From the NCBI GenBank assembly GCA_029856625.1, contig JAHKLG010000002.1, positions 1-32,771 of the forward strand: 32,771 nucleotides of DNA. Reading direction: 5' to 3'. The position numbers and the translations under genes are program-made. This DNA is from Candidatus Njordarchaeota archaeon. GTDB lineage: Archaea; Asgardarchaeota; Njordarchaeia; Njordarchaeales; Njordarchaeaceae. Positions 5,645 to 24,835 of this stretch are shown one piece after another. The notes under the pieces are model-generated. The model was given only the letters and a program-made list of their open reading frames with translations. It searched no databases and was not told the DNA's origin. Position 1 is the first letter of the stretch; every line of letters starts with the position of its first letter.

Positions 5645-7033
5645 TTATGTCTTTACCCGCCTTTTTCTCCGCCTTTCTCCTTTAGGTGATATCCATTTCG
5701 TTGTTATTATTCCAAATAGGATTATTAGTATCATCACAATAGCTATTGCTATCCATAATTCCCAATATTTTTTCTCTTCTTTCTCTTTCAGTTTAACTTC
5801 AGAAATTACTTTTAGCGTTACACTTTTGCTAATAACGAAACCGAATTGGGAAATCATCTGAACGTCCACGATAATCGTTCGAGAATTATTTGGAATTAAA
5901 TCTATCTTGAAGCTATATATTCCTGGTTCAGTTACATTTTTTTCAAAGCTTCCAGTGGTTAATGTGGCATTGCTTGCATCTAAGATCTTGTAGTATACCT
6001 TTAATGTGGTATTTCCGTAACCTTCACCTACTTGAATTCCAATGTACCCTGGACTTAATTCGTATAGATCCCAGCCCGTTATATTGATAATCGGATAAAT
6101 ACTCAGCGCGGCAATTCCTTTTTCAATTACTTGACTAAGGTACGCAATCGAAACCTCTGGTGCTTCTAGTCCAATAGATTTCCTCCATACGTAATTTCTG
6201 AATAGGTATACAAAAGCTGGATATAAATCTCTGAATCCGAATGTTAGAAATGATCCGCTTGCATTAAGTAGTATAGATGTGTTAGAATCTAATGCAAGTA
6301 ATACTCCGTAATTCTGTAATTCTTCTGGTATCTTTTTCGCCTCATTAGCGATATCTATGAGAATTATGCGAAGAGACTCCCTCCCAAATTCATTTAATAT
6401 TTGCTCATATAGAGTTGCGATCCATGTTTTTACTTTATTAACTGCTATTTCATCACTCATGTTAAGGTAGATTAAAATGGTTATTTCTTTGAAATCATCT
6501 ATCGTTAGCTTACTTCCATTAATTAATGTTATATTCAATGCAGTAAGCGGACCATAAAGCGGGGACACAGTGTAAGGCGATCCATAAGTGCATTGATGGT
6601 AAGCATAGAAATTCGATGTTGCTAGTAGACTTTCATTTAGTGATAAATCTTCTGAAATATTCCTAACAAAAAAGACCTCATAACCATTCATATATTCAGA
6701 GTTATTAGTAATGTTTTTCACGTATTCAATAGGTAAAATATTTATCTCCATAATATTTCTCCAGAAGTTATCATTGTTCTTGAATTCTTCTAATAACCAT
6801 AAGGCCGCCTCATATAAACTTGAAAAATTCATTAGACTTCCATTAGAGAATTTTATTGTTGCAACAGGTAAAGTGTTATTCTTAAGAAATCTTGGAGCAT
6901 AATTATACGCCCTTAAACTGTTCGTAATATTAACGCTTTTAGACTCCTTACTCAACGAATCATTAAGTGGCGTGAAAAAAATCATTGTTATGATCAAGAG
7001 TAATACTGGAAGACTTTTTTTCAGAGATTGCAC
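5645..7033 (-). CDS. Secreted, C-terminally membrane-anchored protein, probably a heavily N-glycosylated surface protein (function unknown)
   Basis: N-terminal signal-like segment (SLPVLLLIITMIFFTPL). C-terminal TM (WELWIAIAIVMILIILFGIITT) followed by a basic tail (KGERRRKRRVKT). I count 19 N-x-S/T sequons in 462 aa. GTG start at 7033 with GGTGAT (rc of 7039-7044) 5 nt upstream. Confidence 0.65.
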   Translation of the reverse strand: MQSLKKSLPVLLLIITMIFFTPLNDSLSKESKSVNITNSLRAYNYAPRFLKNNTLPVATIKFSNGSLMNFSSLYEAALWLLEEFKNNDNFWRNIMEINILPIEYVKNITNNSEYMNGYEVFFVRNISEDLSLNESLLATSNFYAYHQCTYGSPYTVSPLYGPLTALNITLINGSKLTIDDFKEITILIYLNMSDEIAVNKVKTWIATLYEQILNEFGRESLRIILIDIANEAKKIPEELQNYGVLLALDSNTSILLNASGSFLTFGFRDLYPAFVYLFRNYVWRKSIGLEAPEVSIAYLSQVIEKGIAALSIYPIINITGWDLYELSPGYIGIQVGEGYGNTTLKVYYKILDASNATLTTGSFEKNVTEPGIYSFKIDLIPNNSRTIIVDVQMISQFGFVISKSVTLKVISEVKLKEKEEKKYWELWIAIAIVMILIILFGIITTKWISPKGERRRKRRVKT

Positions 7034-7084: not shown

Positions 7085-8131
7085 TTAAGATGTTTTATTA
7101 ATGCGCTCGTTTAGCCTATTAATTATATCCTTTAAGAGGTTTAGTATTTCCTCTTGTCTTTCTGCTGTTTTCTTGATGATATCTAGAAGGTTAGATTCTA
7201 AACTCGTAACCTTGTTGAATAATTCATCTAGCTGTGATTGAACATTTTTCAATCCCTCAGCTATACTCCGCAAATCTTTAAATTCCTCGTATTTCTCACC
7301 CTCCTCTCTCTTTCCTCGCTCTACTTTCTCAATCAATTCCCCAGGCTTAACTCGTGCTTCTTGAATTTCTTCTTTAACAAATTCTCGTTCGATCTCTGGT
7401 ATCCGCAGAAGCTCTTTTTTAACACTTACCTCCTTTATAATCAACTCTCTTACATTTGGAATCTTCTTCTTTTCTCCAATGAGCCAAAATAGAATATTTA
7501 CAAAGATCTGCGCATTATCATAATGCTTAATCCAATCATTACTAAACATTTTATAAGAACCAATCACACCTAGTCTCCCATTTCCGTATCGAGATATAAC
7601 TATAACCGGCGCATTCGGTGGGTTATGTCTAGGACTTGTTATCGCTATTGGCTTGGTGTGAGCTCTTTGCTTTATTATAAAGGAGCACCCCTCGGGATAG
7701 ATTATTTTTTCTACACCAAAAGTTATGCTATCAACTTTATTGAATGTGTTTATTATGACTACACTACTTCTTTCTCCTCTAACAATATCACATCGTGGGA
7801 AAATTCCAGCTAATGCTGTGATTTCTTCTAAATTATTAACTAGACCTACATCACCGAATTTATCAAACATTATGAGAAGAGAACCTCCTCTCACAAGGAA
7901 ATCGCGGAGAACAGCCAATTCCTCCTTCTCATATTTGTAATATGTCTTTGCGGGAATTACTAATACACGTGCCCGTCCGATTAACTGCTCATCGAAGGAA
8001 CTCATTTCAATTATGTTAAAGTCTAGATTTACGAGGAGTCTTGCAAGTTCATTGTACTCTCTCTTAATATTGCCTAGGACAGATTCTTGGTCAAAAAGAA
8101 TTGATATCTCACTTGTAGACAACTTATTCAC
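7085..8131 (-). CDS. GIFT/DUF4350-like domain protein (IFT52/GldG-type N-terminal domain) with a C-terminal coiled coil
   Basis: Blocks typical of the GIFT/DUF4350 fold: ILFDQES.., VLVIPAKTYYKYEKEELAVLRDFLVRGGSLLIMFD, NNLEEITALAGI, and GRLGVIGSYKMFSNDWIKHYDNAQIFVNILFWL (cf. the IFT52 block ..GKLxVLGSxxMFsDxYLxKEENxK...WL as I recall it). The last ~120 aa are Glu/Lys-rich heptads. GTG start at 8131. Confidence 0.5.
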   Translation of the reverse strand: MNKLSTSEISILFDQESVLGNIKREYNELARLLVNLDFNIIEMSSFDEQLIGRARVLVIPAKTYYKYEKEELAVLRDFLVRGGSLLIMFDKFGDVGLVNNLEEITALAGIFPRCDIVRGERSSVVIINTFNKVDSITFGVEKIIYPEGCSFIIKQRAHTKPIAITSPRHNPPNAPVIVISRYGNGRLGVIGSYKMFSNDWIKHYDNAQIFVNILFWLIGEKKKIPNVRELIIKEVSVKKELLRIPEIEREFVKEEIQEARVKPGELIEKVERGKREEGEKYEEFKDLRSIAEGLKNVQSQLDELFNKVTSLESNLLDIIKKTAERQEEILNLLKDIINRLNERINKTS

Positions 8132-8220
8132 TCTCTTTCATGTCTCACAATTCAATAAGAGAGAATAATAGCTAAAAATATCACTAATTAAGGTAGGATT
8201 AGAATGTGAGACAAAGAAGG

Positions 8221-8298
8221 TGGTGCCCCGGGCGGGATTTGAACCCGCGTCGCGGGATTGAGAGTCCCGCATGCTTGACCGGGCTACACCACCGGGGC
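8221..8298 (-). tRNA. tRNA-Glu (anticodon CUC), 3' CCA encoded
   Basis: The reverse complement folds as a cloverleaf: acceptor GCCCCGG/CCGGGGC, D arm GTGT..GCAT, anticodon stem CGGGA/TCCCG with loop CTCTCAA (CTC at 34-36), T arm GCGGG-TTCAAAT-CCCGC, discriminator A, then CCA. It is a GC-rich island in an AT-rich context. Confidence 0.9.
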
Positions 8299-8388
8299 GC
8301 TTTATTAAATCCTTTTTCTTAGTAGTCTTGAGAATAGATTTTTAAGTTTTTCTTTATTTCTCCACGTATTATGCTTGAAAAGAAAAAT

Positions 8389-8934
8389 TTATTCTCCATA
8401 GAAAAGGATTTCATTCAATCTCATTACAGCAAGAATTATCTTTTTTCTGTTCTTACTAACGTCTTTTCTATAGCCAGCCAATTCGTTTAAAATGCTTCTT
8501 ATTTCTCGCTGCTTATTTATATCTGCTAATGTCTCTAATGCTCGCCTAATTTTTAGCAATAACCTTTTTACTTCAAATTTTATTAGTTTCTTATTGATTA
8601 CTCGAGAGACATGAAGCATTTCTCCCATTAGCATTTTTCGAGCACGGTCTTCTTGCACCGCTTCTACTATCGCATCCTCCGTATGCACAAAGAGCTCTGA
8701 GTAGTATATGGCTCCTAAAATCTCCTTATCTATATGAGTTTTTGGTCTCACACGTATAATTGCTTTAACATAGTCCTTCTCAAGCGGGAATAACCTTACT
8801 TCAGCCTCAAATAAATCAGTCTCAAATTTTTTGAGAGCAATATCCTCTGATGAAAAGAATAACAGCGATTTTAGATAATTTAAGGATCTTTCTATACGCT
8901 TCATTCTTTCTTCTATTCTCTCTAGCAGGCTCAT
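8389..8934 (-). CDS. Hypothetical helical protein, last gene of the L21e array
   Basis: 181-aa ORF 11 nt downstream of rpl21e on the same strand, with Lys/Glu/Arg-rich helical composition. No family recognised. Confidence 0.55.
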   Translation of the reverse strand: MSLLERIEERMKRIERSLNYLKSLLFFSSEDIALKKFETDLFEAEVRLFPLEKDYVKAIIRVRPKTHIDKEILGAIYYSELFVHTEDAIVEAVQEDRARKMLMGEMLHVSRVINKKLIKFEVKRLLLKIRRALETLADINKQREIRSILNELAGYRKDVSKNRKKIILAVMRLNEILFYGE

Positions 8935-8945
8935 TCCATTTTACC

Positions 8946-9242
8946 TCAAGCGCTCTTGAAAGGTCTGATGTGTTCTGGTCTTGCTATTACTTTTTTCATT
9001 TTTCCGCCATCCCTAATTAATATTACGTAAGCTCGCCCCCTCTTTTCGATAATTGTACCAATCTTTCCGTGAAATCTTGGATGGGGCATTCCCTTATGAA
9101 TACTTGGATCAATTTTTATTACTACTTTATCGCCCACGTTGTATGGATATATTATTCGGCTTAATGGTGGAAGTCCTCTTTCACGAGGAGATTTTCTAAG
9201 AATTTGTCTAGTTCCTGCACGAAATCCCTTTGAGTGCTTCAA
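8946..9242 (-). CDS. rpl21e: 50S ribosomal protein L21e
   Basis: MKHSKGFRAGTRQILRKSPRERGLPPLSRII..GDKVVIKIDPSIHKGMPHPRFHGKIGTI.. is the canonical L21e sequence pattern. 98 aa. Confidence 0.92.
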   Translation of the reverse strand: MKHSKGFRAGTRQILRKSPRERGLPPLSRIIYPYNVGDKVVIKIDPSIHKGMPHPRFHGKIGTIIEKRGRAYVILIRDGGKMKKVIARPEHIRPFKSA

Positions 9243-9865
9243 TGCAATCCCTCCTTGTATCTCGTAATATATCTCATTCCATCCTTGAACAACTTTATAA
9301 CTGTTTTCCTTCTAGACTCATTAACGATAATAGTCTTCAAAATATCAATAATTTGGGCTTTTCGTAGAGGAATAAGCCCTAAGTTCTGCATTATATAAAT
9401 TATTAACGTTACTAAGGCATGAGAAATGCTCATGCTATTTTCTAGAATAATCTTTGAATAATTTATGATAATTAATTCATCTACATGCTTAGCCAATGTC
9501 CTCAAACGCTTTTCAAATTCCTTCTTTTCATAGGCTACGTAACGAAAACTATCTAATACGATTAGATATGCTGTTTTTTCCTTTAGTAATTCGGCTAGGA
9601 TGTCAGTATTTAATATTGATATATCAAAAATTATGGCAAGATCTACCCTATCTCTGACTAATGATATATCAAAAATTTCCTCCCCTACACTAATAATGGT
9701 CACAGTATATACGTTCTCCCTAGTCTTTTGAAGAGGAAGAACTTGAATACGAGTCTGAGAGCTCTTACCTGCATCTTCTAGGTGTATCCTTTTAATAAAG
9801 CTTACGAGAAGAGATATAACTTCCTCAATAGCTCCTAGTAGGAGAATTCTTAATGCCATTTTCAC
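9239..9865 (-). CDS. IorB / 2-oxoacid:ferredoxin oxidoreductase gamma-domain-like protein, degenerate (GGQG motif absent)
   Basis: Length (~200 aa) and block order resemble IorB. LRILLLGAIEEVISLL aligns with xILIxGVGGQGIxLxS. VDLAIIFDISILNTDILAELLKEKTAYLIVLDS aligns with ADxLxAFEPxEAxRxxxYLKxGGxVIVN. There is a helical C-terminal half. The gene overlaps its IorA-like partner by 4 nt. Confidence 0.45.
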   Translation of the reverse strand: MKMALRILLLGAIEEVISLLVSFIKRIHLEDAGKSSQTRIQVLPLQKTRENVYTVTIISVGEEIFDISLVRDRVDLAIIFDISILNTDILAELLKEKTAYLIVLDSFRYVAYEKKEFEKRLRTLAKHVDELIIINYSKIILENSMSISHALVTLIIYIMQNLGLIPLRKAQIIDILKTIIVNESRRKTVIKLFKDGMRYITRYKEGLH

Positions 9866-11499
9866 GTGTCCTCCTTAGATGCGCTTTCCTCTATTATAGC
9901 ATTTATTGGGCAAAAAATCTCACAGAAACCGCAACTCATGCATTCAATGGGATCTATAAGAATAGCCCCCTCAAAGTTCCTTTTAATTGCTGAACAATGA
10001 GTATTGAGCGCGCATTGGCCGCATTTTGTGCATATTTTATAGTTTATCATAATCTTCTTCTTCTCAAACCTTTGTTTCTTAGAAATTATTAAAATTTCTG
10101 GTATTTCTCCTGGAGAATTGCGCAGATTTATCAATTTATCTGGTGTATCAACATAATAGGGGTTCGCGCCTTCCCTCCTTAATATCCTCTCTAATCTTTT
10201 TCTAGATGTATCATCATTACAGACAATAAGAAATCTCGTCTCCAAGCCTTTTCTAATCGTTGAAATTATTTCATAAATTGAGTTAATGTCGTGTTGTAGA
10301 AGGAAATCCTCTATTACTATTAAGTCTCCTTTCTCGAAAGAATTAGCTTTAAATTTTGTTGAGAACCTTATGGTTACTCCAATATTTTTTTCACAAGCTT
10401 TTTTCCATTGCTCGGCATTATTTAAATCATTACTATATATTATTAACCTTTTAATGCCAAACATGCGCATAAAATTGATTGTTGCTGAGATCCATGGCGT
10501 ATTTATAGTAGGTAGACTCTTATGCATCATTGTTACTATCTCTTGAGTCCTCATCACCGCATCTAAAAAGTCGCTCGTAAAATACCTAACCTCCTTATCT
10601 AGAATCTTCTTAAAGGATTTATAGTAATGAATCTTGGGAATAAAATCAATTTTCCCCTCCATATAGATTTTAGAAAGTTCTTTAATGAGGAGATTTGCTG
10701 GAAAATCTGATTTCAAATCAATTAATACTATCTCAATGGGCTCATTATCCATTATTGTTTCAAGTATTTCTGGTATCATTGGATACGAAAAGCCTAATTT
10801 AACTAAGGATGGTCTCTCCTTCCAGCTATAACTAGACCATATGGAGTTAATAACTGAAGATGCATAACCAATAGTGATGACTGTAACTTTTTTATTCTCT
10901 GGAAAATACTCGAAAAACTCTTTTGCATTCACTAAGTTTCGCAAAAAGCGCTTCTTGTCTTTTGCTATAATACTAGTAAGTAATTTGGACCTTCTTTTAG
11001 AGCGCGATCTATGAGGTAGAGGGGGGAAAATTACCTGTTTGAGGATTATGCTTTGGGGAACGTATAGTATTATTGGCATATACTTTTTCTTCAACGCATC
11101 CGATAAAGCTATAATCCCGTCTCTTAAATCCTGGAGATTTTTTGGCTCTATTATAAGAATATCCTTACTCACATTGGTTATTATACTCCGAGAATCTACG
11201 CAATTCTCAGAGAAAGTGTTCGTCATTATTATCCATAAACCATTTCTTATCATGTGTTTAAGGAGGATTGGTGGTGAAGAGAGAAGGTCTTCTTCAAACA
11301 CTAAAACAGCATAATTATTTCTAGTGACTAAATCATGTTCTACAATACTTATTAACTCTCTATAAAATACTGTGTCGATTGTGCTTTCCTTTAATTTAAC
11401 TATGCGAGATTTGATAGAATACGGAATGAATACTCCTTCAACCCCGATACTTTCTAATCCAGCCATTAAATAATCTAATCCAGAATACATTTCAGACAA
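9862..11499 (-). CDS. IorA (indolepyruvate:ferredoxin oxidoreductase alpha)-like protein with a C-terminal 2x[4Fe-4S] ferredoxin domain; TPP-binding motif apparently lost
   Basis: Collinear blocks against IorA as I recall it: GLDYLMAGLESIGVEGVFIPYS ~ GNEAIARGALEAGVxxAxGYPGTPSS; GLWIIMTNTFSENCVDSRS ~ GLVIVSADDPxxHSSQNEQDSR; LIIEPKNLQDLRDGIIALSDALKKKYMPIILY ~ PVLEPSDxQEAxDxxxxAFELSExxxxPVILR; VTVITIGYA..LVKLGFSYPMIPE ~ GIITSGxAY..VLKLGxxYPLP. At the C-terminus, CTKCGQCALNTHC and CMSCGFCEIFCP provide 8 Cys. GDSTFFH..LDN is replaced by IEDFLLQH..CND. Confidence 0.6.
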   Translation of the reverse strand: MSEMYSGLDYLMAGLESIGVEGVFIPYSIKSRIVKLKESTIDTVFYRELISIVEHDLVTRNNYAVLVFEEDLLSSPPILLKHMIRNGLWIIMTNTFSENCVDSRSIITNVSKDILIIEPKNLQDLRDGIIALSDALKKKYMPIILYVPQSIILKQVIFPPLPHRSRSKRRSKLLTSIIAKDKKRFLRNLVNAKEFFEYFPENKKVTVITIGYASSVINSIWSSYSWKERPSLVKLGFSYPMIPEILETIMDNEPIEIVLIDLKSDFPANLLIKELSKIYMEGKIDFIPKIHYYKSFKKILDKEVRYFTSDFLDAVMRTQEIVTMMHKSLPTINTPWISATINFMRMFGIKRLIIYSNDLNNAEQWKKACEKNIGVTIRFSTKFKANSFEKGDLIVIEDFLLQHDINSIYEIISTIRKGLETRFLIVCNDDTSRKRLERILRREGANPYYVDTPDKLINLRNSPGEIPEILIISKKQRFEKKKIMINYKICTKCGQCALNTHCSAIKRNFEGAILIDPIECMSCGFCEIFCPINAIIEESASKEDT

Positions 11500-11501
11500 C
11501 T

Positions 11502-12413
11502 TTAGTTCACCACAGTCAATATTTCTGCCGAATTTTCTTTAACAAGAATAGTATGCTCAAATTGCACAACCCATAATCCTCTTGATTCCAATAATGGAGG
11601 GTATAGATAAACGAGCCCTCTTTTATTGTATTGTATAAAGTTGTTCAAAAGCTTAATGTAATCCTTTTTCCTTTTAGTAATCCATCTTGCAGCAAAGGGT
11701 AAGTGATTAAATTTTTTAAAAAGAAGATTAAGAAAGTTATCCGAGATTTTTCTAATCTCCTCACTTATTGAAAATATATGCGTCTTATTCCATAGGGGTC
11801 TTGTGGAACCATCCTTGGAGGAGGGGACTAAGAAAGGTTCTATAGCTAATACTTGTCCTTTTCTAACTTTAATACTCTTGCCCTTTATCGGTTTGTTGGG
11901 AATAAAAATGCCAGCATGAAGCTTCCAGCGCTCTATTGAATGCCCACCTAAATCTTCTAATACTCCAAATCCTAATTCATGTGATTTCTTCCATATTATT
12001 TCGCTAATATCGCTGACCCTAATGCCATCTTTCACCACTTCGATAGCTTCTTCTAAAACTTCTTTACCAGCTTTTAATAGCCTTGTCATTATTTTCGATA
12101 CGTTGCCTACGCTAATGCTTAATGCTGCATCTGCTATTGCCCCATTAATATGAGCACCTACATCAATTTTTATAATCCCACTACCAGGAATCTTAGTCAA
12201 ATCTCCAGGTAGGCCCGCATAATGAGCAGCAATTTCATTTATGGATATATTAGCTGGAAAGGCGGGTTTTGCGCCTTTTTTAATTATCGATTTCTCTATA
12301 GCCTCACATAACTTAACGATGCTCTCCCCCGGCTTTAGTGATCGCACTTCCTTTAAAACTTCTGCAACTATACGTCCAGCTTCTAACCAATGCTCTATCT
12401 TCCTATCAGTCAT
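11502..12413 (-). CDS. map: Methionine aminopeptidase, type 2 (archaeal/eukaryotic type)
   Basis: FPANISINEIAAHY, IKIDVGAHINGAIADAA, GGHSIERWKLHAG, LAIEPF and QFEHTILV blocks carry the pita-bread metal ligands. ~300 aa. Confidence 0.9.
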   Translation of the reverse strand: MTDRKIEHWLEAGRIVAEVLKEVRSLKPGESIVKLCEAIEKSIIKKGAKPAFPANISINEIAAHYAGLPGDLTKIPGSGIIKIDVGAHINGAIADAALSISVGNVSKIMTRLLKAGKEVLEEAIEVVKDGIRVSDISEIIWKKSHELGFGVLEDLGGHSIERWKLHAGIFIPNKPIKGKSIKVRKGQVLAIEPFLVPSSKDGSTRPLWNKTHIFSISEEIRKISDNFLNLLFKKFNHLPFAARWITKRKKDYIKLLNNFIQYNKRGLVYLYPPLLESRGLWVVQFEHTILVKENSAEILTVVN

Positions 12414-13399
12414 GATGATTCACCAATTCTTCTTAACTCTTGCAAAAAAATGATAAAATAAACTATGATCCAAACCGTTGCGCCTACAAAATAAATCAAA
12501 GCTTGGTAAGCTACGTATATCTGGTAGTTTACAAATCCAGAGAGGTAACGAAAAGATTCGATAGAGAATATCGTCGTATACATAATGACTGATAAAGCGG
12601 TAATTTTCCCTCCAAGACCTACCCTATTAATTCCCTTAAACCATCTAATTATGTTTGAAATTGCCAATATGCCTAAGCATGGAATATATAACCATGGGAA
12701 GAGTTGAGGAAGATAAAGGTATGCCAAAGCGAACATTACAAAGAAGATTATTTCCATCAAATATATTTTCCTTCTCGGTATCACTACCGTTGGATCATAT
12801 TGCTTAGCTCCTTCATATATTAGCAATGTAAAATCCCCAATACTACCCGCAGCCACAACTAATGAGGATACTATGTAGGATATTTCTATCGAATCCTGAA
12901 AGAGCATAGTAAAATGTCTTAAAGACCACTTTGTGATCGTTAAGTAAAAGAGGATCACTATTTTTGCTAAGGAAACGAAGGATAAGAGAGCTAGAAGGAT
13001 GAAGATAATCATGCCCTTTCTTCGCTTCTTAGCAATTAAGTAAGGGAGTATTATTACGAAAAAAACGAATGAAAATAGCGGTGTGACCACGGGAATTAAA
13101 AATAGGAATAATACTGTTACTACAAGAATGGAGAAGAAAGTCACCTTGGAAATCGGAAGCTTGCTTAACTCCTTAAGGAGAATATCAATCGTTTTAATAT
13201 GGATTTCATAATAGTATAAAAGGAAAAAAATCCACGGAGCAAGCAAAACTGTAACCAATAATAACATCCATAAAATTGAAATTCTAAACTCGATCCACGC
13301 ACTCATTAATACACGAGATAACCATAAAAAGTACAAGACTATAAGGATTACAACCATGTAATACGCTATCTGAGAGTATCTAGAACTGCTCTCTTCCAT
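12410..13399 (-). CDS. Polytopic integral membrane protein (about 8-9 predicted TM helices), unknown function
   Basis: The 329-aa ORF is almost entirely hydrophobic segments separated by short basic loops. Its stop overlaps the MetAP start by 4 nt (ATGA). Confidence 0.7.
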   Translation of the reverse strand: MEESSSRYSQIAYYMVVILIVLYFLWLSRVLMSAWIEFRISILWMLLLVTVLLAPWIFFLLYYYEIHIKTIDILLKELSKLPISKVTFFSILVVTVLFLFLIPVVTPLFSFVFFVIILPYLIAKKRRKGMIIFILLALLSFVSLAKIVILFYLTITKWSLRHFTMLFQDSIEISYIVSSLVVAAGSIGDFTLLIYEGAKQYDPTVVIPRRKIYLMEIIFFVMFALAYLYLPQLFPWLYIPCLGILAISNIIRWFKGINRVGLGGKITALSVIMYTTIFSIESFRYLSGFVNYQIYVAYQALIYFVGATVWIIVYFIIFLQELRRIGESS

Positions 13400-15520: not shown

Positions 15521-17371
15521 TTAGCCTCCCCTAAGCATAGAATTTCTTAAAAGAAAACGTCTTAAGAAGTCCTCCTCGTTAATATCTCCGAGAATTTCAC
15601 TTAATTTAACAGATTTGATACCTAATTTCTCTTTTACACTTCTGTATTCTTGAAGAGATTTAATCCTACCCTTATAAATTAATATTCTCAAAACTCTCTT
15701 TGGGTTATACCCAGCAATTCTCACTATTTTTTCATCAAGATCATACTCCGCACATATTCTCGTTAACTCTTCTTCACTTAATCTTTTCACCAAATGCAGT
15801 ATCACGTCGCCCCGGATAGCGGATACGCCTATAAGATCTATGAATTCCTTTCCAGCGTAACTTAACATATTCTTTTTGCTGATCACCCTTGATAAGGGCT
15901 CTGGATCAATTGGTAATTTGAGCTTTAATTTCCCATTTACAAGTTCAATAAATTCGGTCGGCAGTGCATGGAAGTAATTTTCTAATATTTCTTCGTAAAG
16001 TACGGGAATTCTATATTTTAAGCAGAATGAAAATAAATAACTAGGTCTTAGCGCAATTGTCTCTGTTAAGTTCAATTCCTTAAGCCCTCTCATTACTAAT
16101 AGCCTAAGACTCCATAATAAGTCTGATTTATCTATCCTCTTAATAAACGGCAAAGCCTTACGTCCATGTTTCTGGACTATTTCTAATAAACTTTTGACAA
16201 AGGAAAGAGCCGGTTCCGGCTCTCCTTTTTCGTTTCTTTTTAACATTATTAGGCAAAAACCCCTCTCTGGCAAAAGCTCTTGCGTGTAAATTATATAGTT
16301 GTAATTATCTATAGCAAGCCTCGCTCCAATTATCTCAGAAGAGTCAAAAACTCTTAAGGAGGGAGCCTTAAAAGCATCTACTTCTCTAATAATTAGATCC
16401 TCGCTAATTCGTATATTTCTTTGGTCCTCCTCAATAATGAGCCTTTCTGGATCGTATTGCACAAATTCTATTCTAGTATATTGAGGTTTAAGTAAAACTT
16501 CCAATTCCTTCGATAAAAACTTTCTTTCTTTAAGAAATTCCCTAATATGCGATGCTAAAAGCTGTTCTTCACTTATACCCATTTCGCTTAATAATTTTTG
16601 TTTTAAATCTTCTGGATCCTTAGCTCCAAACTCTATGCCTATATGTTTGTACAATTCTTCGAAGAGATCTGGAGATATACTTCTCTCTTTAGAGATCTCT
16701 AAAAGAATTGTAGATAGATCCCTTGAAATATAAACTCCTGATACTATCATTGAACTTTTTTCATTACTCCCTCCTTTTAGAGATACGCTATATCCTAACA
16801 AATTCCATGCATCTTTTATTTTTCTGATAGGTGGTTTCGCCAGAACACTAAAGAAGATAGCATCCTTGAGAACCTCTTTAATCCTCATCCGTTCGTTTTC
16901 AATGACTTCCAGATACTCTTTAGGAGCTTGCTCTTCCAATGCCTCCATTTTCTCCAATGATTTTCTAAGATCTTTAATGATTTCTGATAACTCATCATAA
17001 GTTGAAACAATTTTGTTAATGACTTTTTCTAACAGAGCTCCACTCCTAAGAAGATTGGCTAATTCATTCTTTAATGGAATGATTATTTCCCTCGCTTTTG
17101 ATAACTTCTTAATATATTCGGGTTCTATTGCTGTTAGTTCCTCCCTAATCTTTTCGCATATTCCTCCTAGCTCATCTATTCTCTTTCGAATTTTTGCTAT
17201 ATAATCAATCAATTCATCTAACTCTCTCAACGAAAGATTTCTACGAGCCAATTCGAGCAATTTATCTAAGTACCGCATCTCATTTTCTAGTCTCTGAAAC
17301 TTATTCACCCTTTTTTTGTACTCTATTATGTCCTGCAAAAATCTAGATAACTCCTTATTTGTTGCAGTCAT
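15521..17371 (-). CDS. Large hypothetical protein (616 aa): N-terminal coiled coil, globular C-terminal two-thirds, C-terminus ..MLRGG
   Basis: Long uninterrupted ORF with protein-like composition. Its start overlaps the upstream PfkB gene by 17 nt. No catalytic or nucleotide-binding motif recognised. Confidence 0.7.
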   Translation of the reverse strand: MTATNKELSRFLQDIIEYKKRVNKFQRLENEMRYLDKLLELARRNLSLRELDELIDYIAKIRKRIDELGGICEKIREELTAIEPEYIKKLSKAREIIIPLKNELANLLRSGALLEKVINKIVSTYDELSEIIKDLRKSLEKMEALEEQAPKEYLEVIENERMRIKEVLKDAIFFSVLAKPPIRKIKDAWNLLGYSVSLKGGSNEKSSMIVSGVYISRDLSTILLEISKERSISPDLFEELYKHIGIEFGAKDPEDLKQKLLSEMGISEEQLLASHIREFLKERKFLSKELEVLLKPQYTRIEFVQYDPERLIIEEDQRNIRISEDLIIREVDAFKAPSLRVFDSSEIIGARLAIDNYNYIIYTQELLPERGFCLIMLKRNEKGEPEPALSFVKSLLEIVQKHGRKALPFIKRIDKSDLLWSLRLLVMRGLKELNLTETIALRPSYLFSFCLKYRIPVLYEEILENYFHALPTEFIELVNGKLKLKLPIDPEPLSRVISKKNMLSYAGKEFIDLIGVSAIRGDVILHLVKRLSEEELTRICAEYDLDEKIVRIAGYNPKRVLRILIYKGRIKSLQEYRSVKEKLGIKSVKLSEILGDINEEDFLRRFLLRNSMLRGG

Positions 17372-19738: not shown

Positions 19739-20191
19739 TTAACCCTTCTCTAATTGTTCCAGCCGTCTTCTTAATTGATCGATTTCCCCCTGCAACTTAT
19801 TCATCATTTCTTGAATTTGTAGCAGCATTCTTCTGGAGTTTTCAATTGATTCCCTAACTATTCGCTCTTTGTCATTCATTTTCTCTATAGCTTCCTCAAG
19901 AGTCATTGGTAACGCTATTTCCGCTCCCACATCAACTAAAACTTTCTCCTCAATCACAATCTCCCCTTTAACGAATACTCCACTACCTAAGTTTATTAGC
20001 CCAGATAATCTTTTCTGAGGCGACTTAACAAGCTCCTTGAGAGCATTCCGCGTTCTCACAATATCCGAAAGCATAACCATGTTAGCTTCAATTAATTGTT
20101 GGTAAACGCTTGCCAAGTTCTGTAATTCTAATACCCGCCCTAGTTTCGCTTGAAGACTCCTCCGTAACTCATCTATAGACGCTTCACTCAT
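19739..20191 (-). CDS. pfdA: Prefoldin alpha subunit
   Basis: 150 aa. Coiled-coil N- and C-terminal arms flank a double beta-hairpin core (LINLGSGVFVKGEI..KVLVDVGAEIALPMTLEEAIE). It sits directly downstream of rplX, as in many archaea. Confidence 0.85.
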   Translation of the reverse strand: MSEASIDELRRSLQAKLGRVLELQNLASVYQQLIEANMVMLSDIVRTRNALKELVKSPQKRLSGLINLGSGVFVKGEIVIEEKVLVDVGAEIALPMTLEEAIEKMNDKERIVRESIENSRRMLLQIQEMMNKLQGEIDQLRRRLEQLEKG

Positions 20192-20202: not shown

Positions 20203-20460
20203 TTATGGAGCCCAAATAGCTGGATTTTCAGCCATTATTAACTTTCTTAACTTTGCGTTTTTAACTTCCTCTGGCGAGATTTCTTTAATATCTACAATCT
20301 CTATTTGTGTCCTCTTTAAGCCTTGGGAACCTATTTCGGAAAAGAATTTCTCAAGCGCATTCTCTAATGAAACAGCTCGAATCTCCTTTGAAACATAGAA
20401 AAACCTCTTAAGCCTACGGTATCTTCCAGTGATTCTATATGTTTTTATCTTAGAACTCAT
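20203..20460 (-). CDS. rplX: 50S ribosomal protein LX / L18Ae (eL20 family)
   Basis: KTYRITGRY..KEIRAVSLENALEKFFSEIGSQGLKRTQIEIVDIKEISPEE matches the LX pattern (..YxxxGSxHxxKRxxIxI..EI). 85 aa. GGAGG/GGTGG is present upstream. Confidence 0.8.
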   Translation of the reverse strand: MSSKIKTYRITGRYRRLKRFFYVSKEIRAVSLENALEKFFSEIGSQGLKRTQIEIVDIKEISPEEVKNAKLRKLIMAENPAIWAP

Positions 20461-20568: not shown

Positions 20569-20985
20569 CTAGCTACTACTGAGATAGTAAACTAGGAGGA
20601 GCGGGATACTTACGGATAATGTCTGAGAAAAAATGAATAATTCAAGATATTTATCAATAAATATAATCCAGTCCATTAACTCTGCGAATACCCAAATGAA
20701 AATCATATTCTGGATGCTTAATACTATGAAAACGCTTAGAAGAGGAATTTGTAACCAATGCTTAGAAATTATCTTTTCTGAAAGATATTCCCCGATCATA
20801 ACCGCCAGTAGATAGTTTGCAAAGAGAACTAAGGCTCCTACCACTAATAGGATTATCTCATCTCCTGAAACAGCTCCTATTCTACATCCAAAATATGCTT
20901 GAGGAACATAAGCTATGGAGAGTATCGTAAACATTAACAATTTATCACGCAAATAAAGACCCATCAATTCTCCCTCATTTCTCAC
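20569..20985 (-). CDS. Small integral membrane protein (about 4 TM), unknown function
   Basis: 138-aa hydrophobic ORF. Its start overlaps the stop of the NYN-domain gene by 4 nt. Confidence 0.55.
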   Translation of the reverse strand: MRNEGELMGLYLRDKLLMFTILSIAYVPQAYFGCRIGAVSGDEIILLVVGALVLFANYLLAVMIGEYLSEKIISKHWLQIPLLSVFIVLSIQNMIFIWVFAELMDWIIFIDKYLELFIFSQTLSVSIPLLLVYYLSSS

Positions 20986-21569
20986 TCTAAATTTTTCATT
21001 TCCTTAGGCTTTAACTCAATAATTTCGTCAGCTGCGTTTTTGAGAGATACCGAAAATCCCGGTTCAAAGCCCATAATGACAGCTATAGCACCTTCGCTTT
21101 TTATCTTCTGAAGAATCGGTAAGCATCTCGAATCTCTACTACCAATTATTATGACGTCAATAGCTTCTTCTTTTAAGAGTCGCATTACTTCAACGGCCAT
21201 CGCAACATGAATGTCTCCTACTGGAACCACACGGGGTTCAAATCCACTATTAGATAGCGCTTTTATGAGAGATGATGGAGCATCAGGACTTAAGAGAGCT
21301 ACTGCTATACTAACTCTACCGAATTTCTCTGCTTTCTTACGAATTTCTTTAAGTGATATCCTTTTTCCATTCACTTTACGGAGAAGATTTGGCCCATCTA
21401 CAATAATACCTACCTCCTTCTTGCTATGTCGAAATAGCTTCATTATATAATCTGATAATCTATTCTGAAGCAGTTCTAGGAATGATTGTGAACTGGACTC
21501 AGAACTATTTAACGAATTAATATCGTTGCCATCTTTGTTCTCTCTCATTATATCACCAAATACTTGCAA
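20982..21569 (-). CDS. NYN/LabA-like (PIN-related) domain protein, putative RNase
   Basis: GIIVDGPNLLRK.., ..VGDIHVAMAVEVMRL.., IDVIIIGSRDSRCLPILQKIK blocks are typical of the COG1432/LabA NYN fold with conserved acidic residues. Confidence 0.65.
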   Translation of the reverse strand: MQVFGDIMRENKDGNDINSLNSSESSSQSFLELLQNRLSDYIMKLFRHSKKEVGIIVDGPNLLRKVNGKRISLKEIRKKAEKFGRVSIAVALLSPDAPSSLIKALSNSGFEPRVVPVGDIHVAMAVEVMRLLKEEAIDVIIIGSRDSRCLPILQKIKSEGAIAVIMGFEPGFSVSLKNAADEIIELKPKEMKNLE

Positions 21570-21612: not shown

Positions 21613-23583
21613 TTAGATTGCAAAGAAAATGCTCTTTAATTTATTAACTATTCGAACCCTCTTGGTTTTCTCATGAATAATGGCATCAATGTACTCATTA
21701 ATTAAGGCATCATATTCTACTTTGCTTACTTCACCCTTCAAGAACTTCTCAGCTTCCTCAAAGATCATTCTGCGAATAATTGTCAATCGTCCCTCGATTC
21801 TCCTTAGCTCTGATGCATATTCCCTTACTTCTGGATATTGAGAGATAATCCTGCTTATTAACATAAAAATTGTTTCTCTCTTCTTATATGTCTCCTCTAT
21901 TTTGTTTCTGAGATCCATAAGCGTTGAGGCCGAAGGACGTCGCCCGAGAACTTCCCTAATAAGTTTCTGATCAGTTTCATTCTCGATTGCTATGTACTCC
22001 TCATACGCCTTTATTAACTGAGAAACCGTCGCTATTATACGTTTCCTTCTCGGAATTTCTGGCAATGCTCTCCTTCTCTTAACAGTGACTGCCTCTGTAA
22101 TCATTAACGTTAGAGTTACCAATACAATCGCCAAAGGTATCATTATGACTACAGCCCTTAGCAAGACTAATTTATTCATATCTATGCGCAGATGGATAAG
22201 CGTATTCATAGGGGGTATAAGCATAGAGAAATGTAGCCTTCTCTCCATGTAAGGAATTAATAATCTCTCTACCGTCCATCTGGACTCATTATACATTAGC
22301 TTGGGGTTGCAAGAGCTTAAATTCATGCTCAAAATATGAGGCGTTAATATTCTTAGGGTGTAGGAACTCATTGTTGCGTTTATTATTGGAGAGAGAGGGA
22401 TGCTCAGGGATATTGTGTCATTCTTAACTACTGGTTGAATAGTGTATTCAACATAGAATTTCACTAGTTCATTTCCAGTTACTGGCGTCCTTAATTTTAC
22501 TTCCACAAAAGTATAGTTTTCGAAAATCCCTTCGCCCTTATCTTCTGTAACATCTAATTTACCAAAATCATCGTATGCTCTTATGTTTTCTACGTTTTCT
22601 GCTAGGCCTATTCGCAACTTAAGAGTACCCCAGTCCCGCGCCACATTATGTGCATTCGAAGCTGGCGTTATCGCCTCAATATAAAATTCATCACGCACCC
22701 TTATCTTACCACTTGTTGTTATCTCTATTTCCCTAATCGCATTCGGAAACCTTAAAGGAAGATAGGTATATCCTTCAGGCGCTATGGTTTTGAGCTTGTA
22801 GAAGTATTTTATTTTTACCAATTTCTCATAAGGAGTAGAAAAATTGAATGGTTCTACATTAGATTCTACCCAGTATACCTCGCTACCCGATATCGATTTT
22901 CCTTCCTTTGGTTCGATATCTTCAAACGTAACCTGAACATCCCCGGTGGGTGGAGCGATTATGGATACTCTTGCTTTATCAAGCTTGTAGGGAAGAAGAG
23001 GCATTTTATAAACTACCAAGTAGCAATAAATATCATCATTGTTAGGACTCTCTAGCCAAGCAAAATTTGGTAAGTCACTTAACAGAATTATAGTGTACTC
23101 CTCTCCTTTGTAAATTGGTCTCTCAAATATAACGGCTATTCCAATATAGTCCTTGGAGAAAGTATGGATTCTCCACTCAATCTTCCTGAAATTTTCTTCT
23201 TTAAATGCCCCGAGGACTCTAAAGTATACTATTTTTCTCCAGAAATCCTTCGGATAATAAATTAGGATAGCATTAAAAGATCTTTCATCTTCGTTCTTAA
23301 TCTTTATAGTTTCGTTAAGAATAACATATAGGTAATCATTTATATTGAAAGTCCTGTAAACCTCGATTGAAATGTTTTGACGTTGTGAGGGAAAATTGGG
23401 CTCTACCGTCGATGAAACGGATCTCTTATTCGGAACTGCTGAAATATCAAATATACCAGGATTTTTTATTCTTCGAAAGTTTCTTTGAGAATATGTCATC
23501 ATTGGGAGCAATGCCAACTGAACCACTAATAGAATTACTAATAATCCTGAGACAAGTATAATGTTCTTGTTTCTTCCCAGCAT
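21613..23583 (-). CDS. Ribophorin I / OST1-like single-pass membrane glycoprotein (tentative)
   Basis: Signal/anchor, a ~440-aa extracytoplasmic domain with 8 sequons, a TM helix, then a KRRR stop-transfer and a ~160-aa coiled-coil tail. Several sequence blocks line up by eye with Ost1/RPN1 (see finding). AGGAGG (rc of 23594-23599) lies 10 nt upstream of the ATG. Confidence 0.5.
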   Translation of the reverse strand: MLGRNKNIILVSGLLVILLVVQLALLPMMTYSQRNFRRIKNPGIFDISAVPNKRSVSSTVEPNFPSQRQNISIEVYRTFNINDYLYVILNETIKIKNEDERSFNAILIYYPKDFWRKIVYFRVLGAFKEENFRKIEWRIHTFSKDYIGIAVIFERPIYKGEEYTIILLSDLPNFAWLESPNNDDIYCYLVVYKMPLLPYKLDKARVSIIAPPTGDVQVTFEDIEPKEGKSISGSEVYWVESNVEPFNFSTPYEKLVKIKYFYKLKTIAPEGYTYLPLRFPNAIREIEITTSGKIRVRDEFYIEAITPASNAHNVARDWGTLKLRIGLAENVENIRAYDDFGKLDVTEDKGEGIFENYTFVEVKLRTPVTGNELVKFYVEYTIQPVVKNDTISLSIPLSPIINATMSSYTLRILTPHILSMNLSSCNPKLMYNESRWTVERLLIPYMERRLHFSMLIPPMNTLIHLRIDMNKLVLLRAVVIMIPLAIVLVTLTLMITEAVTVKRRRALPEIPRRKRIIATVSQLIKAYEEYIAIENETDQKLIREVLGRRPSASTLMDLRNKIEETYKKRETIFMLISRIISQYPEVREYASELRRIEGRLTIIRRMIFEEAEKFLKGEVSKVEYDALINEYIDAIIHEKTKRVRIVNKLKSIFFAI

Positions 23584-23677
23584 TCTTTTCAGCCTCCTTA
23601 TTTAGGTAAAGATAAGACCCTAAATATATGAAATCTCAGCATACTTACTCTTGCGAAATTAGTTTTTCAGCCTCTTT

Positions 23678-24835
23678 TCAATCCGTGTAAATTGTGAGTA
23701 CATCACCATCTTCCAATGGAAAACTAAGACCTACTCTCATTTTTCGGATTTTTGAATATTTGCGTTCTACTATCGCAAATTTAAATTTTCTAACAAAATC
23801 ACTGTGAATCCTTTCTGCAGCATCCTTTACGGTAGCTCCGCGTGTTAAGACTATGGCTCTTTCTGCTATTTTCCCATCCTTCTTTGTCCATATGCGTATA
23901 AGATTTAATTCCTCTATGATCCCTCTTCCTATTTCAGTGCGCCCAATTCTTTTTATCGCAGAAACGGGAATTACTCGGAGACCTTTAACTATTGTTTTTA
24001 GCTCAGCATAAGCCCCATACGATCCTGGCAAGTCGCCTTTTGTCGCAATAACTATAGCTTTCTTAAAGACCGTCCTCCTATCCAGTGCGTTTAAAATATC
24101 CTCCTCATCTACTGGACCATGTATTTCGAGAATACAATTCTGGATTCCCATACTGGTTAAGAATTCTTTGAGCTCTTCTATGGAGAAAACCGTGTATTGG
24201 GCACCGTATATCTGAATACCTCCTCTAGATAATTTTAAGAATCTAATAGGTGGCTTGGGACGATCTATTACTATCCTAGCATCTTTAAGGACCTTAAAAA
24301 GGACCTTTATTTGCCATTTAACATCTTGAGATAAGTCTATTACCAGACCTACTATATCTGAGTTTCTTACAATTGACAATAGAGCTCTACCATTTGGCGT
24401 CTCATCTATGTTTTCAGATAGGATAGGTGGAAGATCTATGACTTGAATCCACACTCCCTCGTATTTAAAGATTCCAATGGAGGGCAGAATAGTTGTCTTA
24501 CCCACCTCTTTCGTATTTTCTGTGAGCATATTGAAAAGAGATGTTTTACCCACACCGGGCAGACCAAGTAATGTGAATTGTACATCTCCTTCTTTAGGAA
24601 TAGAAAAATACGGAGCCCCTCTTCTCTTCTTAGCTATTTCTTGCTTTTTTGATAATTCAAGCTTGAGTTTCATTAACGTTTTCTTAGCATGCATTAAGAG
24701 TTTTTCTGTTCCCTTGTGTTTAGGCGTAAGAGAGATGAATTCCTCAAGAGCCCTTATTTTCTCCTCTAAAGTTTTCGCCTCCAGATACTTCTGGTAAGCC
24801 GCCTTGGCTTCTGCAGGTAAATTTGCCGGCATCAA
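23678..24835 (-). CDS. DRG/Rbg-type (Obg-like) GTPase with C-terminal TGS domain
   Basis: Helical N-terminus (..KYLEAKTLEEKIRALEEF..), G1 GLPGVGKTSLFN, G3 DLPP, G4-like ATKGD. TGS-like C-terminus (VKDAAERIHSDFVRKFKFA..GDVLTIY). Confidence 0.85.
   Translation of the reverse strand: MMPANLPAEAKAAYQKYLEAKTLEEKIRALEEFISLTPKHKGTEKLLMHAKKTLMKLKLELSKKQEIAKKRRGAPYFSIPKEGDVQFTLLGLPGVGKTSLFNMLTENTKEVGKTTILPSIGIFKYEGVWIQVIDLPPILSENIDETPNGRALLSIVRNSDIVGLVIDLSQDVKWQIKVLFKVLKDARIVIDRPKPPIRFLKLSRGGIQIYGAQYTVFSIEELKEFLTSMGIQNCILEIHGPVDEEDILNALDRRTVFKKAIVIATKGDLPGSYGAYAELKTIVKGLRVIPVSAIKRIGRTEIGRGIIEELNLIRIWTKKDGKIAERAIVLTRGATVKDAAERIHSDFVRKFKFAIVERKYSKIRKMRVGLSFPLEDGDVLTIYTD

Follow-up and report, generated by a model that had tools for sequence, protein, structure and literature searches.

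The oligosaccharyltransferase (OST) of eukaryotes includes a non-catalytic subunit called Ost1, or ribophorin I, whose human form, RPN1, docks the ribosome in the mammalian OST-A complex. Ost1/ribophorin I counts as a eukaryotic signature protein (ESP) and figures in the argument that the N-glycosylation machinery of the eukaryotes' Asgard ancestor was already ribosome-coupled and made up of several subunits. Human RPN1 (6S7O chain E, 8B6L; 607 aa) belongs to an ER complex with at least eight subunits; its signal sequence is followed by a pair of luminal beta-sandwich domains, a single transmembrane (TM) helix and a cytosolic four-helix domain. Yeast Ost1 (Ost1p; 6EZN, 6C26, 7OCI, 8AGB) has 476 aa and is without the cytosolic helical domain. 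The Asgard archaeon Candidatus Prometheoarchaeum syntrophicum MK-D1, of the Lokiarchaeia, encodes an Ost1 of 607 aa; its cytosolic domain has been crystallized as a bundle of four helices resembling its human counterpart, and it was shown to pull down ribosomes (PMC11417166, 2024). PDB entry 8WHN, 'Ribophorin 1 superfamily protein', is presumably this domain. The pull-down makes outdated the statement in the original prediction that no archaeal function had been tested. For the lineage considered here, the Njord ancestor is inferred by Eme et al. (2023) to have had about one copy of ribophorin I, and one early Njordarchaeota survey leaves ribophorin I out of its list for the group.

We analysed a stretch of 32,771 nucleotides (the window) in which a ribophorin I/OST1-like membrane protein had been proposed from the sequence. 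This protein is very probably a divergent Ost1/ribophorin I orthologue from a Njordarchaeales-type Asgard archaeon, with an OST helper role according to the scheme proposed below. The ORF listing returned a single ORF with an ATG start and 656 aa, identical in position and sequence to what had been quoted, with the following parts.

21613–23583, minus strand: complete Ost1/ribophorin I-like gene, 656 codons plus stop (21613–21615); from ORF call, homologues, AlphaFold (AF2) model and Foldseek
23494–23583, minus strand: predicted N-terminal signal peptide or signal anchor, residues 1–30 (MLGRNK followed by hydrophobic residues 7–30); from hydropathy and AF2
22180–23373, minus strand: extracytoplasmic beta-rich Ost1 domains, residues 71–468, with eight sequons including N247 and N402, and with D338/G341; from AF2, Foldseek and hhalign
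22078–22176, minus strand: single TM helix, residues ~470–502, followed by KRRR..RRKR (503–517); from hydropathy and AF2 (helix 472–505)
21616–22077, minus strand: cytosolic basic helical domain, residues 503–656, with four predicted helices; from AF2, pI, hhalign and Foldseek

By standard searches the MK-D1 protein is recognizable as a ribophorin, whereas the window protein is not. At E ≤ 10, hmmscan against Pfam returned a spurious match to Otospiralin only, and neither NCBIfam (hmmscan) nor PDB sequences (phmmer) gave a match for the protein itself. It falls below the gathering threshold of Pfam Ribophorin_I (PF04597), and its orthologues P0001 and P0002 are likewise without a Pfam domain. 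The absence of a significant match to this profile is literally the outcome that the original prediction had named as counting against it. Because the protein has no direct match, its sequence link to ribophorin I needs intermediate sequences, profile–profile comparison or structure. In a word-indexed homologue search, the single sequence and a 17-sequence alignment alike recovered nothing beyond a 98%-identical copy, and a scan of genome contigs with the single protein found no relative. An exhaustive phmmer search over 1.84 billion representatives recovered 23 relatives, most matching end to end; 21 are 579–660 aa long, and the other two have 433 and 150 aa.

We scanned 22 family sequences, the window protein and 21 relatives, against Pfam; eight passed Ribophorin_I, with a best E of 4.7e-25. 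The close relatives P0003, P0008 and P0011 score 32–39 bits against a cut-off of 25, and the intermediate P0012, which matches the window protein at E = 7e-46 by phmmer, scores 69 bits. For profile comparisons we used a close-only profile, built from the 17 closest relatives, and a wide family profile that also takes in distant members. Aligned by hhalign to the distant Pfam-positive members, the close-only profile gave a probability of 100% and E = 1e-45 over columns 67–651 (564 columns), TM helix and tail included. Its alignment to the human RPN1 sequence covered residues 238–412 (E = 2.4e-6), and an hmmsearch of PDB sequences with it returned no RPN1 or Ost1 chain at E ≤ 1. The wide profile matched human RPN1 6s7o_E at E = 8.5e-27 (chain residues 69–605) and yeast Ost1 6c26_1 at E = 1.8e-8; since these strong PDB matches are driven by its distant members, we added the hhalign and structural evidence. 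Intermediates and profile–profile alignment thus connect the protein to bona fide Ribophorin I/Ost1 members. Four blocks that had been lined up by eye all reappeared when HMMER aligned the family profile to human RPN1 and yeast Ost1; in the yeast case, the N-terminal block pairs with the family block that includes EVYRTFNINDYLYVILNETIKIKN.

The AF2 model of the 656-aa protein had a pLDDT of 83.1 and a pTM of 0.64. Searched against the PDB with Foldseek, as had been suggested, it returned human RPN1 or yeast Ost1 chains at all of ranks 1–8 (E from 7.4e-28, for human RPN1 as best match, to 5.2e-19), followed at rank 9 by E = 4.8e-7. Residues 71–468 are modelled as all-beta with pLDDT mostly 85–97, and by AF2 and Foldseek the luminal region has the Ost1/RPN1 fold. 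Luminal domains and TM helix superpose on yeast Ost1p with target-normalized TM-scores of 0.60–0.62 (rmsd ~7 Å, ~476 columns), and the alignment to full-length RPN1 8b6l_O extends over 623 columns. In structural alignment, identity to human RPN1 is merely 12–13%; R-x-I-E-[IV] and RD-x-x-G-N/K are common motifs. Within the latter, D338 and G341 are invariant in the family alignment columns, as part of a 'YDDFGK' motif whose RPN1 counterpart is RDEIGN. Sequence and model together show homology to ribophorin I/Ost1 from end to end, through the luminal beta domains and the TM helix to the helical domain in the cytosol. The ribophorin I/OST1-like identity first proposed is therefore borne out by Pfam-positive relatives, hhalign, the AF2 model and the top eight Foldseek matches.

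A hydropathy scan found exactly two hydrophobic segments, at residues ~5–33 and ~467–502, with KRRRALPEIPRRKR directly after the second. AF2 places a helix at residues 3–28 and then a low-confidence linker (27–59); this extra linker of ~30 residues after the signal sequence distinguishes the protein from human RPN1. A hydrophobic N-terminus is also seen in most homologues. By the positive-inside rule, the C-terminus would lie in the cytoplasm. There are nine N-x-S/T sequons, eight in the ectodomain (residues 31–468) and one in the tail; shuffled ectodomains are expected to hold 3.3 ± 1.7, and 1.3% of shuffles reach eight. Because of the two hydrophobic segments, the KRRR..RRKR run after the second, and the distribution of sequons (eight outside, one inside), the protein shows a predicted type I topology, with the beta-sandwich domains outside the cell, one TM helix, and the basic helical domain in the cytoplasm. 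Hydropathy and sequon counts agree with the N-terminal signal or anchor, the ~440-aa ectodomain with eight sequons and the single TM helix followed by KRRR..RRKR that had been described. The 17 close homologues carry 7–14 sequons in the ectodomain and 0–3 in the tail. Two positions are conserved among them, N247 (15/17) and N402 (16/17), at which the protein itself is probably N-glycosylated. Its sequon density, 1.37 per 100 aa, ranks second among 27 window ORFs, with cytoplasmic proteins in the window at 0–0.5 per 100 aa.

In the tail, AF2 predicts four helices of ~30 residues each (510–545, 552–582, 587–615 and 621–655), following the TM helix. The original description of a ~160-aa helical, coiled-coil tail stands as to a helical region, here ~155 aa long and basic; the model gives four helices and not one long coiled coil. 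E528 is invariant within a YEEY motif, and a C-terminal N-x-L-[RK] motif, here NKLK (N647), is conserved; the YEE and N-x-L-R motifs of the MK-D1 tail align with these. The wide profile matched 8whn_A at E = 7.8e-19, and the match of the close-only profile to the 8whn sequence was weak (hhalign E = 3e-4, probability 40%). Judged by sequence and model, residues 503–656 are predicted to correspond to the four-helix bundle with which RPN1 and the Lokiarchaeon Ost1 bind ribosomes. Ribosome binding, demonstrated for the human and MK-D1 proteins only, is suggested for this tail by homology and its basic pI (9.6–9.9). With this domain the Njordarchaeales-type protein differs from yeast Ost1 and has the same architecture as human RPN1 and Lokiarchaeal MK-D1 Ost1. 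Unlike RPN1 in its ER complex, it would sit in the cell membrane.

As originally noted, the gene is embedded among core archaeal genes. Together with its neighbours it forms a co-directional run (DRG–Ost1–NYN–4TM–LX–PfdA) that ends in the genes for L18Ae/LX and prefoldin alpha.

23678–24835, minus strand: DRG-type GTPase (MMR_HSR1 and TGS), upstream neighbour; from Pfam
23593–23629, minus strand: candidate expression signals read from the sequence, a TATA-like A/T-rich ATATATTTA (23621–23629) and AAGGAGG (23593–23599), 9 nt before the ATG
20982–21569, minus strand: NYN-domain protein (TIGR00288 family), downstream neighbour; from Pfam and NCBIfam
20569–20964, minus strand: conserved 131-aa protein with four TM helices (4-TM protein) and no recognizable family; from alignments
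20203–20460, minus strand: ribosomal protein L18Ae/LX; from Pfam, gene calls and translation
19739–20191, minus strand: prefoldin alpha; from Pfam, gene calls and translation

The DRG GTPase gene adjoins Ost1 in every related locus showing that flank (L001, L050, L051, L057 and L058), the NYN gene follows Ost1 in seven related contexts (loci L001, L050, L052, L057, L058 and L059), and in all loci seen the 4-TM gene either lies against the NYN gene or overlaps it. The fixed neighbourhood of DRG GTPase, Ost1, NYN and 4-TM protein across the Njord-type clade is a new observation. The 4-TM protein forms only seven clusters in 5.8 billion proteins, six of them seen next to Ost1. It had no Pfam match and no PDB profile match, its AF2 model reached a pLDDT of only 66, Foldseek found nothing at E < 0.9, and hhalign to the Ost3/DC2-like protein of locus L055 gave a probability of 0.1%. 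Given this low-confidence model and the lack of Pfam, PDB, hhalign or Foldseek support, we do not claim it as a small OST subunit of the Ost3/DC2, Ost5 or DAD1 type.

Pfam scans of all ORFs of ≥110 aa found no STT3 in the 32.8-kb window, and neither an Asgard STT3 nor an Ost3/DC2-like protein gave a tblastn match there, in agreement with the earlier statement that no AglB/STT3 gene lies in it. Nor was AglB/STT3, Ost3/DC2 or another OST subunit found in related Njord-type loci. One distant relative (L055/L056) has STT3 (PF02516, 161 bits), a gene for a 141-aa Ost3/DC2-like protein (PF04756, E = 1.6e-4) and a Ribophorin_I gene, in this order.

The lack of a direct Pfam or PDB sequence match, and the presence of integrins and the LTA4 hydrolase N-terminal domain, other beta-sandwich proteins, among the lower Foldseek matches, could be read as signs of an unrelated surface glycoprotein or adhesin whose generic beta-sandwich domains resemble Ost1 superficially. 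However, RPN1/Ost1 and all other folds lie 20 orders of magnitude apart in Foldseek, the alignment to Pfam-positive relatives runs on through TM helix and tail, and both length and architecture agree with those of human RPN1; we regard an adhesin as extremely improbable and effectively refuted. The protein might also be Ost1 by descent and yet serve mainly as a ribosome receptor or Sec translocon accessory without AglB, or as a partner of the NYN nuclease and the 4-TM protein, which we consider unlikely. Ribosome binding is the only function tested for any archaeal Ost1, AglB and other OST genes are missing from the vicinity in 7 of 7 Njord-type contexts, and these contexts keep the DRG GTPase and the order Ost1–NYN–4-TM protein (–L18Ae–prefoldin alpha), with overlaps of 4–11 nt between the NYN and 4-TM genes. 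That synteny, however, may merely reflect a narrow clade with little rearrangement, and in another Asgard lineage the Ost1 gene stands directly behind STT3 and an Ost3/DC2-like gene. Moreover, conservation is strongest in the luminal domains, which are not involved in binding ribosomes, and these keep the invariant D338/G341 motif common to RPN1.

It is similarly doubtful that Njordarchaeales-type Ost1 has been uncoupled from the AglB locus and belongs to a lineage-specific module with a translationally coupled NYN nuclease and the clade-restricted 4-TM protein, beside DRG, L18Ae and prefoldin. If it did, the 4-TM protein would be an unrecognized membrane partner, for instance a new OST or translocon subunit or a membrane anchor of the NYN RNase, and ribosome docking at the membrane would be linked to RNA processing or surveillance. 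The Ost1–NYN–4TM neighbourhood offers a small, testable lead to further partners.

In the favoured reading, a divergent Ost1 orthologue that helps OST, the protein would be inserted by the Sec pathway and then reside in the cytoplasmic membrane beside the catalytic AglB/STT3, where it may act as a scaffold or substrate-facilitating subunit. By analogy with RPN1, its cytosolic four-helix domain would dock ribosomes at the SecYEG translocon while they translate, allowing co-translational N-glycosylation of nascent chains.

Close relatives are labelled Njordarchaeales or Njordarchaeia (Asgard), and distant family members Hodarchaeota or Promethearchaeota; these labels are NCBI submitters' names. 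For the PolD DP2 gene, the best match, at 79% identity, lies on a contig labelled 'uncultured Nitrososphaerota archaeon'. We rejected a TACK placement, because this contig is 100% identical to the one whose genes carry the Njordarchaeales label at NCBI; Njordarchaeales have also been reported to be artefactually drawn toward TACK/Korarchaeota (PMC10307638). The Asgard labels and the copy inferred for the Njord ancestor (Eme et al. 2023) fit the description of archaeal ribophorin I as an Asgard ESP. Because the gene lies in a type of Asgard genome in which such genes had already been reported, the call is correct but not new; ribophorin I in Asgard archaea is of a known kind, to which this gene adds nothing new in kind. 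What the Njordarchaeales version appears to be, from sequence and model, is a complete Ost1 that includes the counterpart of the ribosome-binding tail. Since it is too divergent for Pfam or NCBI annotation, domain-based tables of ESP presence and absence can under-count the family; every named relative in public records is entered as a 'hypothetical protein'.

The Ost1 gene is a single ORF at 21613..23583 (-) with an ATG start, and its 656-aa product was as quoted in the original prediction, which had read it as a ribophorin I/Ost1-like protein. An A/T-rich TATA-like element lies upstream of the ATG, and AAGGAGG lies 9 nt 5' of the start. A Kyte-Doolittle scan gave two hydrophobic segments (residues ~5-33 and ~467-502), the second followed by KRRRALPEIPRRKR, and eight of the nine N-x-S/T sequons fall between them; hydropathy and sequon counts thus confirmed the arrangement first described, with a basic run after the second segment. 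When the inter-segment region was shuffled, 3.3 ± 1.7 sequons were expected and 1.3% of shuffles reached 8. Sequon density was 1.37 per 100 aa, second highest among the 27 ORFs of the window, whose cytoplasmic proteins have 0-0.5.

Searched directly, the window protein had no meaningful match in Pfam, NCBIfam or PDB sequences, and a word-indexed homologue search returned only a 98%-identical copy. Using phmmer against 1.84 billion representatives, we found 23 relatives (E = 1.6e-219 to 1e-4), most matched end to end; 21 were 579-660 aa long and two were shorter (433 and 150 aa). The anticipated Ribophorin_I match therefore failed for the window protein itself but held for its family: among 22 sequences scanned (the window protein and 21 relatives), eight passed the 25-bit cut-off of PF04597 (best E = 4.7e-25). 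Close relatives scored 69 bits (P0012, E = 7e-46 to the window protein), 32 bits (P0003, E = 4e-82), and 36 and 39 bits (P0008 and P0011).

A profile of the 22 family sequences matched human RPN1 (6s7o_E, E = 8.5e-27, chain residues 69-605), a 'Ribophorin 1 superfamily protein' (8whn_A, E = 7.8e-19) and yeast Ost1 (6c26_1, E = 1.8e-8). Its alignments reproduced all four blocks that had been paired by eye with RPN1/Ost1. D338 and G341, within a YDDFGK motif aligned with RDEIGN of RPN1, are invariant in the family, as is E528 in the tail. Because a close-only profile of 17 sequences found no RPN1/Ost1 chain among PDB sequences (hmmsearch), these PDB matches are carried by the distant members, and the link was therefore rechecked independently by hhalign and by structure. 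The close-only profile aligned with five distant members over 564 columns (probability 100%, E = 1e-45; residues 67-651, comprising ectodomain, TM helix and tail); three of those five members score 64-89 bits on PF04597. Against sequences taken from the family-profile search output, it matched human RPN1 over residues 238-412 (E = 2.4e-6, probability 89%) and, weakly, the crystallised Lokiarchaeon tail over residues 514-646 (E = 3e-4, probability 40%).

An AlphaFold2 model from a 17-sequence alignment (mean pLDDT 83.1, pTM 0.64) was composed as follows:

Residues 3-28, N-terminal helix
Residues 27-59, low-confidence linker
Residues 71-468, all-beta region
Residues 472-505, long TM helix
Residues 510-545, 552-582, 587-615 and 621-655, four tail helices of ~30 residues each

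In a Foldseek search of the PDB, the first eight places were taken exclusively by RPN1/Ost1 chains (8b6l_O, 8pn9_E, 6s7o_E, 8agb_E, 7oci_A, 6ezn_A, 6s7t_E and 6c26_1; E = 7.4e-28 to 5.2e-19), bearing out the predicted fold, and an integrin ranked ninth (E = 4.8e-7). The TM-score against yeast Ost1 was 0.60-0.62, normalised by target. Some 620 columns aligned with full-length RPN1 at high rmsd, as a difference in inter-domain orientation would lead one to expect. We place the beta domains on the outer side and the tail on the inner side, judging from the run of positive charges behind the TM helix and from where the sequons fall: among 17 homologues, ectodomains carry 7-14 sequons and tails 0-3, with N247 conserved in 15 and N402 in 16. 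Tail pI is 9.6-9.9. The ribophorin I/Ost1 reading is thus supported.

The gene lies in a conserved setting:

24835 down to 19739 (-), co-directional run of DRG (a DRG-type GTPase), Ost1, NYN, the 131-aa 4-TM protein, L18Ae and prefoldin alpha

Core archaeal neighbours were present as predicted, comprising, besides DRG, NYN, L18Ae and prefoldin alpha, PolD DP2, RNase P p30, RNase HII, CGI-121, mevalonate kinase, MetAP, FtsY and Trm1. The DRG / Ost1 - NYN - 4-TM core recurs in five related loci (L050, L052, L057, L058 and L059), among which Ost1 identity falls to 24% and GC ranges from 36% to 48%. In P0012's lineage, only DRG / Ost1 is retained. The 4-TM gene (20569-20964 (-)) directly follows a TIGR00288-type NYN gene (20982-21569 (-)), itself after Ost1; this order is invariable, also in those five loci, and an overlap of 4-11 nt between the two genes is frequent. 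The 4-TM protein is clade-restricted (131-143 aa, four TM helices; P21, Y24, Y60, K68, H69, P74, F89, W91, S113 and Q114 invariant), matched no Pfam or PDB family and gave a poor predicted model. Among 5.8 billion proteins it is represented by just 7 clusters, six of them seen on Ost1-bearing contigs; the seventh, P0029, is tentatively assigned to one. That Ost1, NYN and the 4-TM protein form one module seems improbable.

As originally stated, the window holds no STT3 (Pfam scans of its ORFs of ≥110 aa and a search with Asgard sequences), nor was an Ost3-like gene found in it. A more distant Asgard-type contig, L055 (also L056), has three genes head to tail at 7106-11818:

STT3, 690 aa
Ost3/OSTC(DC2)-like 3-TM protein, 141 aa (PF04756 E = 1.6e-4, below cut-off)
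Ribophorin_I protein, 605 aa

This tight cluster looks like an OST operon and links the Ost1 family to the oligosaccharyltransferase at the genomic level.

The homology, fold and topology of the window protein are demonstrated; its probable function we infer from the eukaryotic complex and one archaeal study. There, the cytosolic domain of MK-D1 OST1 adopts a four-helix bundle resembling its human counterpart, and ribosomes are pulled down by this domain but not by the extracellular one (PMC11417166). By analogy, the window protein would most likely be a non-catalytic AglB partner that acts at the Sec translocon and links the docking of ribosomes with N-glycosylation during translation. A plausible heavy client is encoded at 5645-7033 (-), a 462-aa ORF that begins with a signal-like segment and has RRRKRR after a C-terminal TM helix. 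The product matched no Pfam or NCBIfam family and has 19 sequons against 5.1 ± 2.0 expected (4.1 per 100 aa, the window maximum), making it a candidate secreted, membrane-anchored, heavily N-glycosylated surface protein.

Ribophorin I/Ost1 as a kind, and its occurrence in the Njord lineage, are already known: lists of Asgard eukaryotic signature proteins have included it since 2017, OST1 is present in TACK and Asgard archaea (PMC11417166), and a reconciliation table gives the Njord ancestor 1.03 copies (Eme et al. 2023). In the first Njordarchaeota preprint, the lineages listed with ribophorin I are Hermod-, Freyr-, Sigyn- and Tyrarchaeota, and the absence of Njord from that list fits a subfamily escaping domain screens. 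What is added here is that proteins annotated as hypothetical belong to this family below Pfam detection, and that their neighbourhood is conserved.

Among genomes, the window's DP2 is matched best, at 79% identity, by a locus (L005) that bears the label 'uncultured Nitrososphaerota archaeon'. That locus is identical in DNA over 9449 bp to L050, which carries a 55%-identical Ost1 orthologue and whose Ost1 and 4-TM proteins are labelled 'Candidatus Njordarchaeales archaeon' by NCBI; one DNA thus bears two labels in two public MAGs. For the rest of the clade the labels are Njordarchaeia or Njordarchaeales, and in older records Korarchaeota, Thermoprotei or Bathyarchaeota, exactly the artefactual attraction of Njordarchaeales to Korarchaeota/TACK described by Eme et al. 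2023 (PMC10307638). Distant Pfam-positive members carry Hodarchaeota and Promethearchaeota labels. We conclude from submitters' labels that the contig is of Njordarchaeales type within Asgard.

Elsewhere in the window, we noted the following:

7085-8131 (-), 348-aa protein matching the IFT52 GIFT domain (E = 2e-13) and DUF4350, adjoining the sequon-rich surface protein gene; L051 has a 499-aa relative with faint GIFT matches near Ost1
8221-8298 (-), tRNA-Glu(CTC)
12410-13399 (-), 329-aa protein with ~9 TM segments and no family, its gene overlapping the methionine aminopeptidase start (11502-12413 (-)) by 4 nt; a ~327-aa gene with no Pfam match followed by Peptidase_M24 is the same pair in L001, L050 and L051
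13457-13540 (+), tRNA-Leu(CAG)
15521-17371 (-), 616-aa soluble protein with a coiled-coil N-terminus and no family except a weak SMC-like match; it is conserved at this length (615-616 aa) next to the PfkB kinase in both L001 and L050, while L058 has a 615-aa gene with no Pfam match
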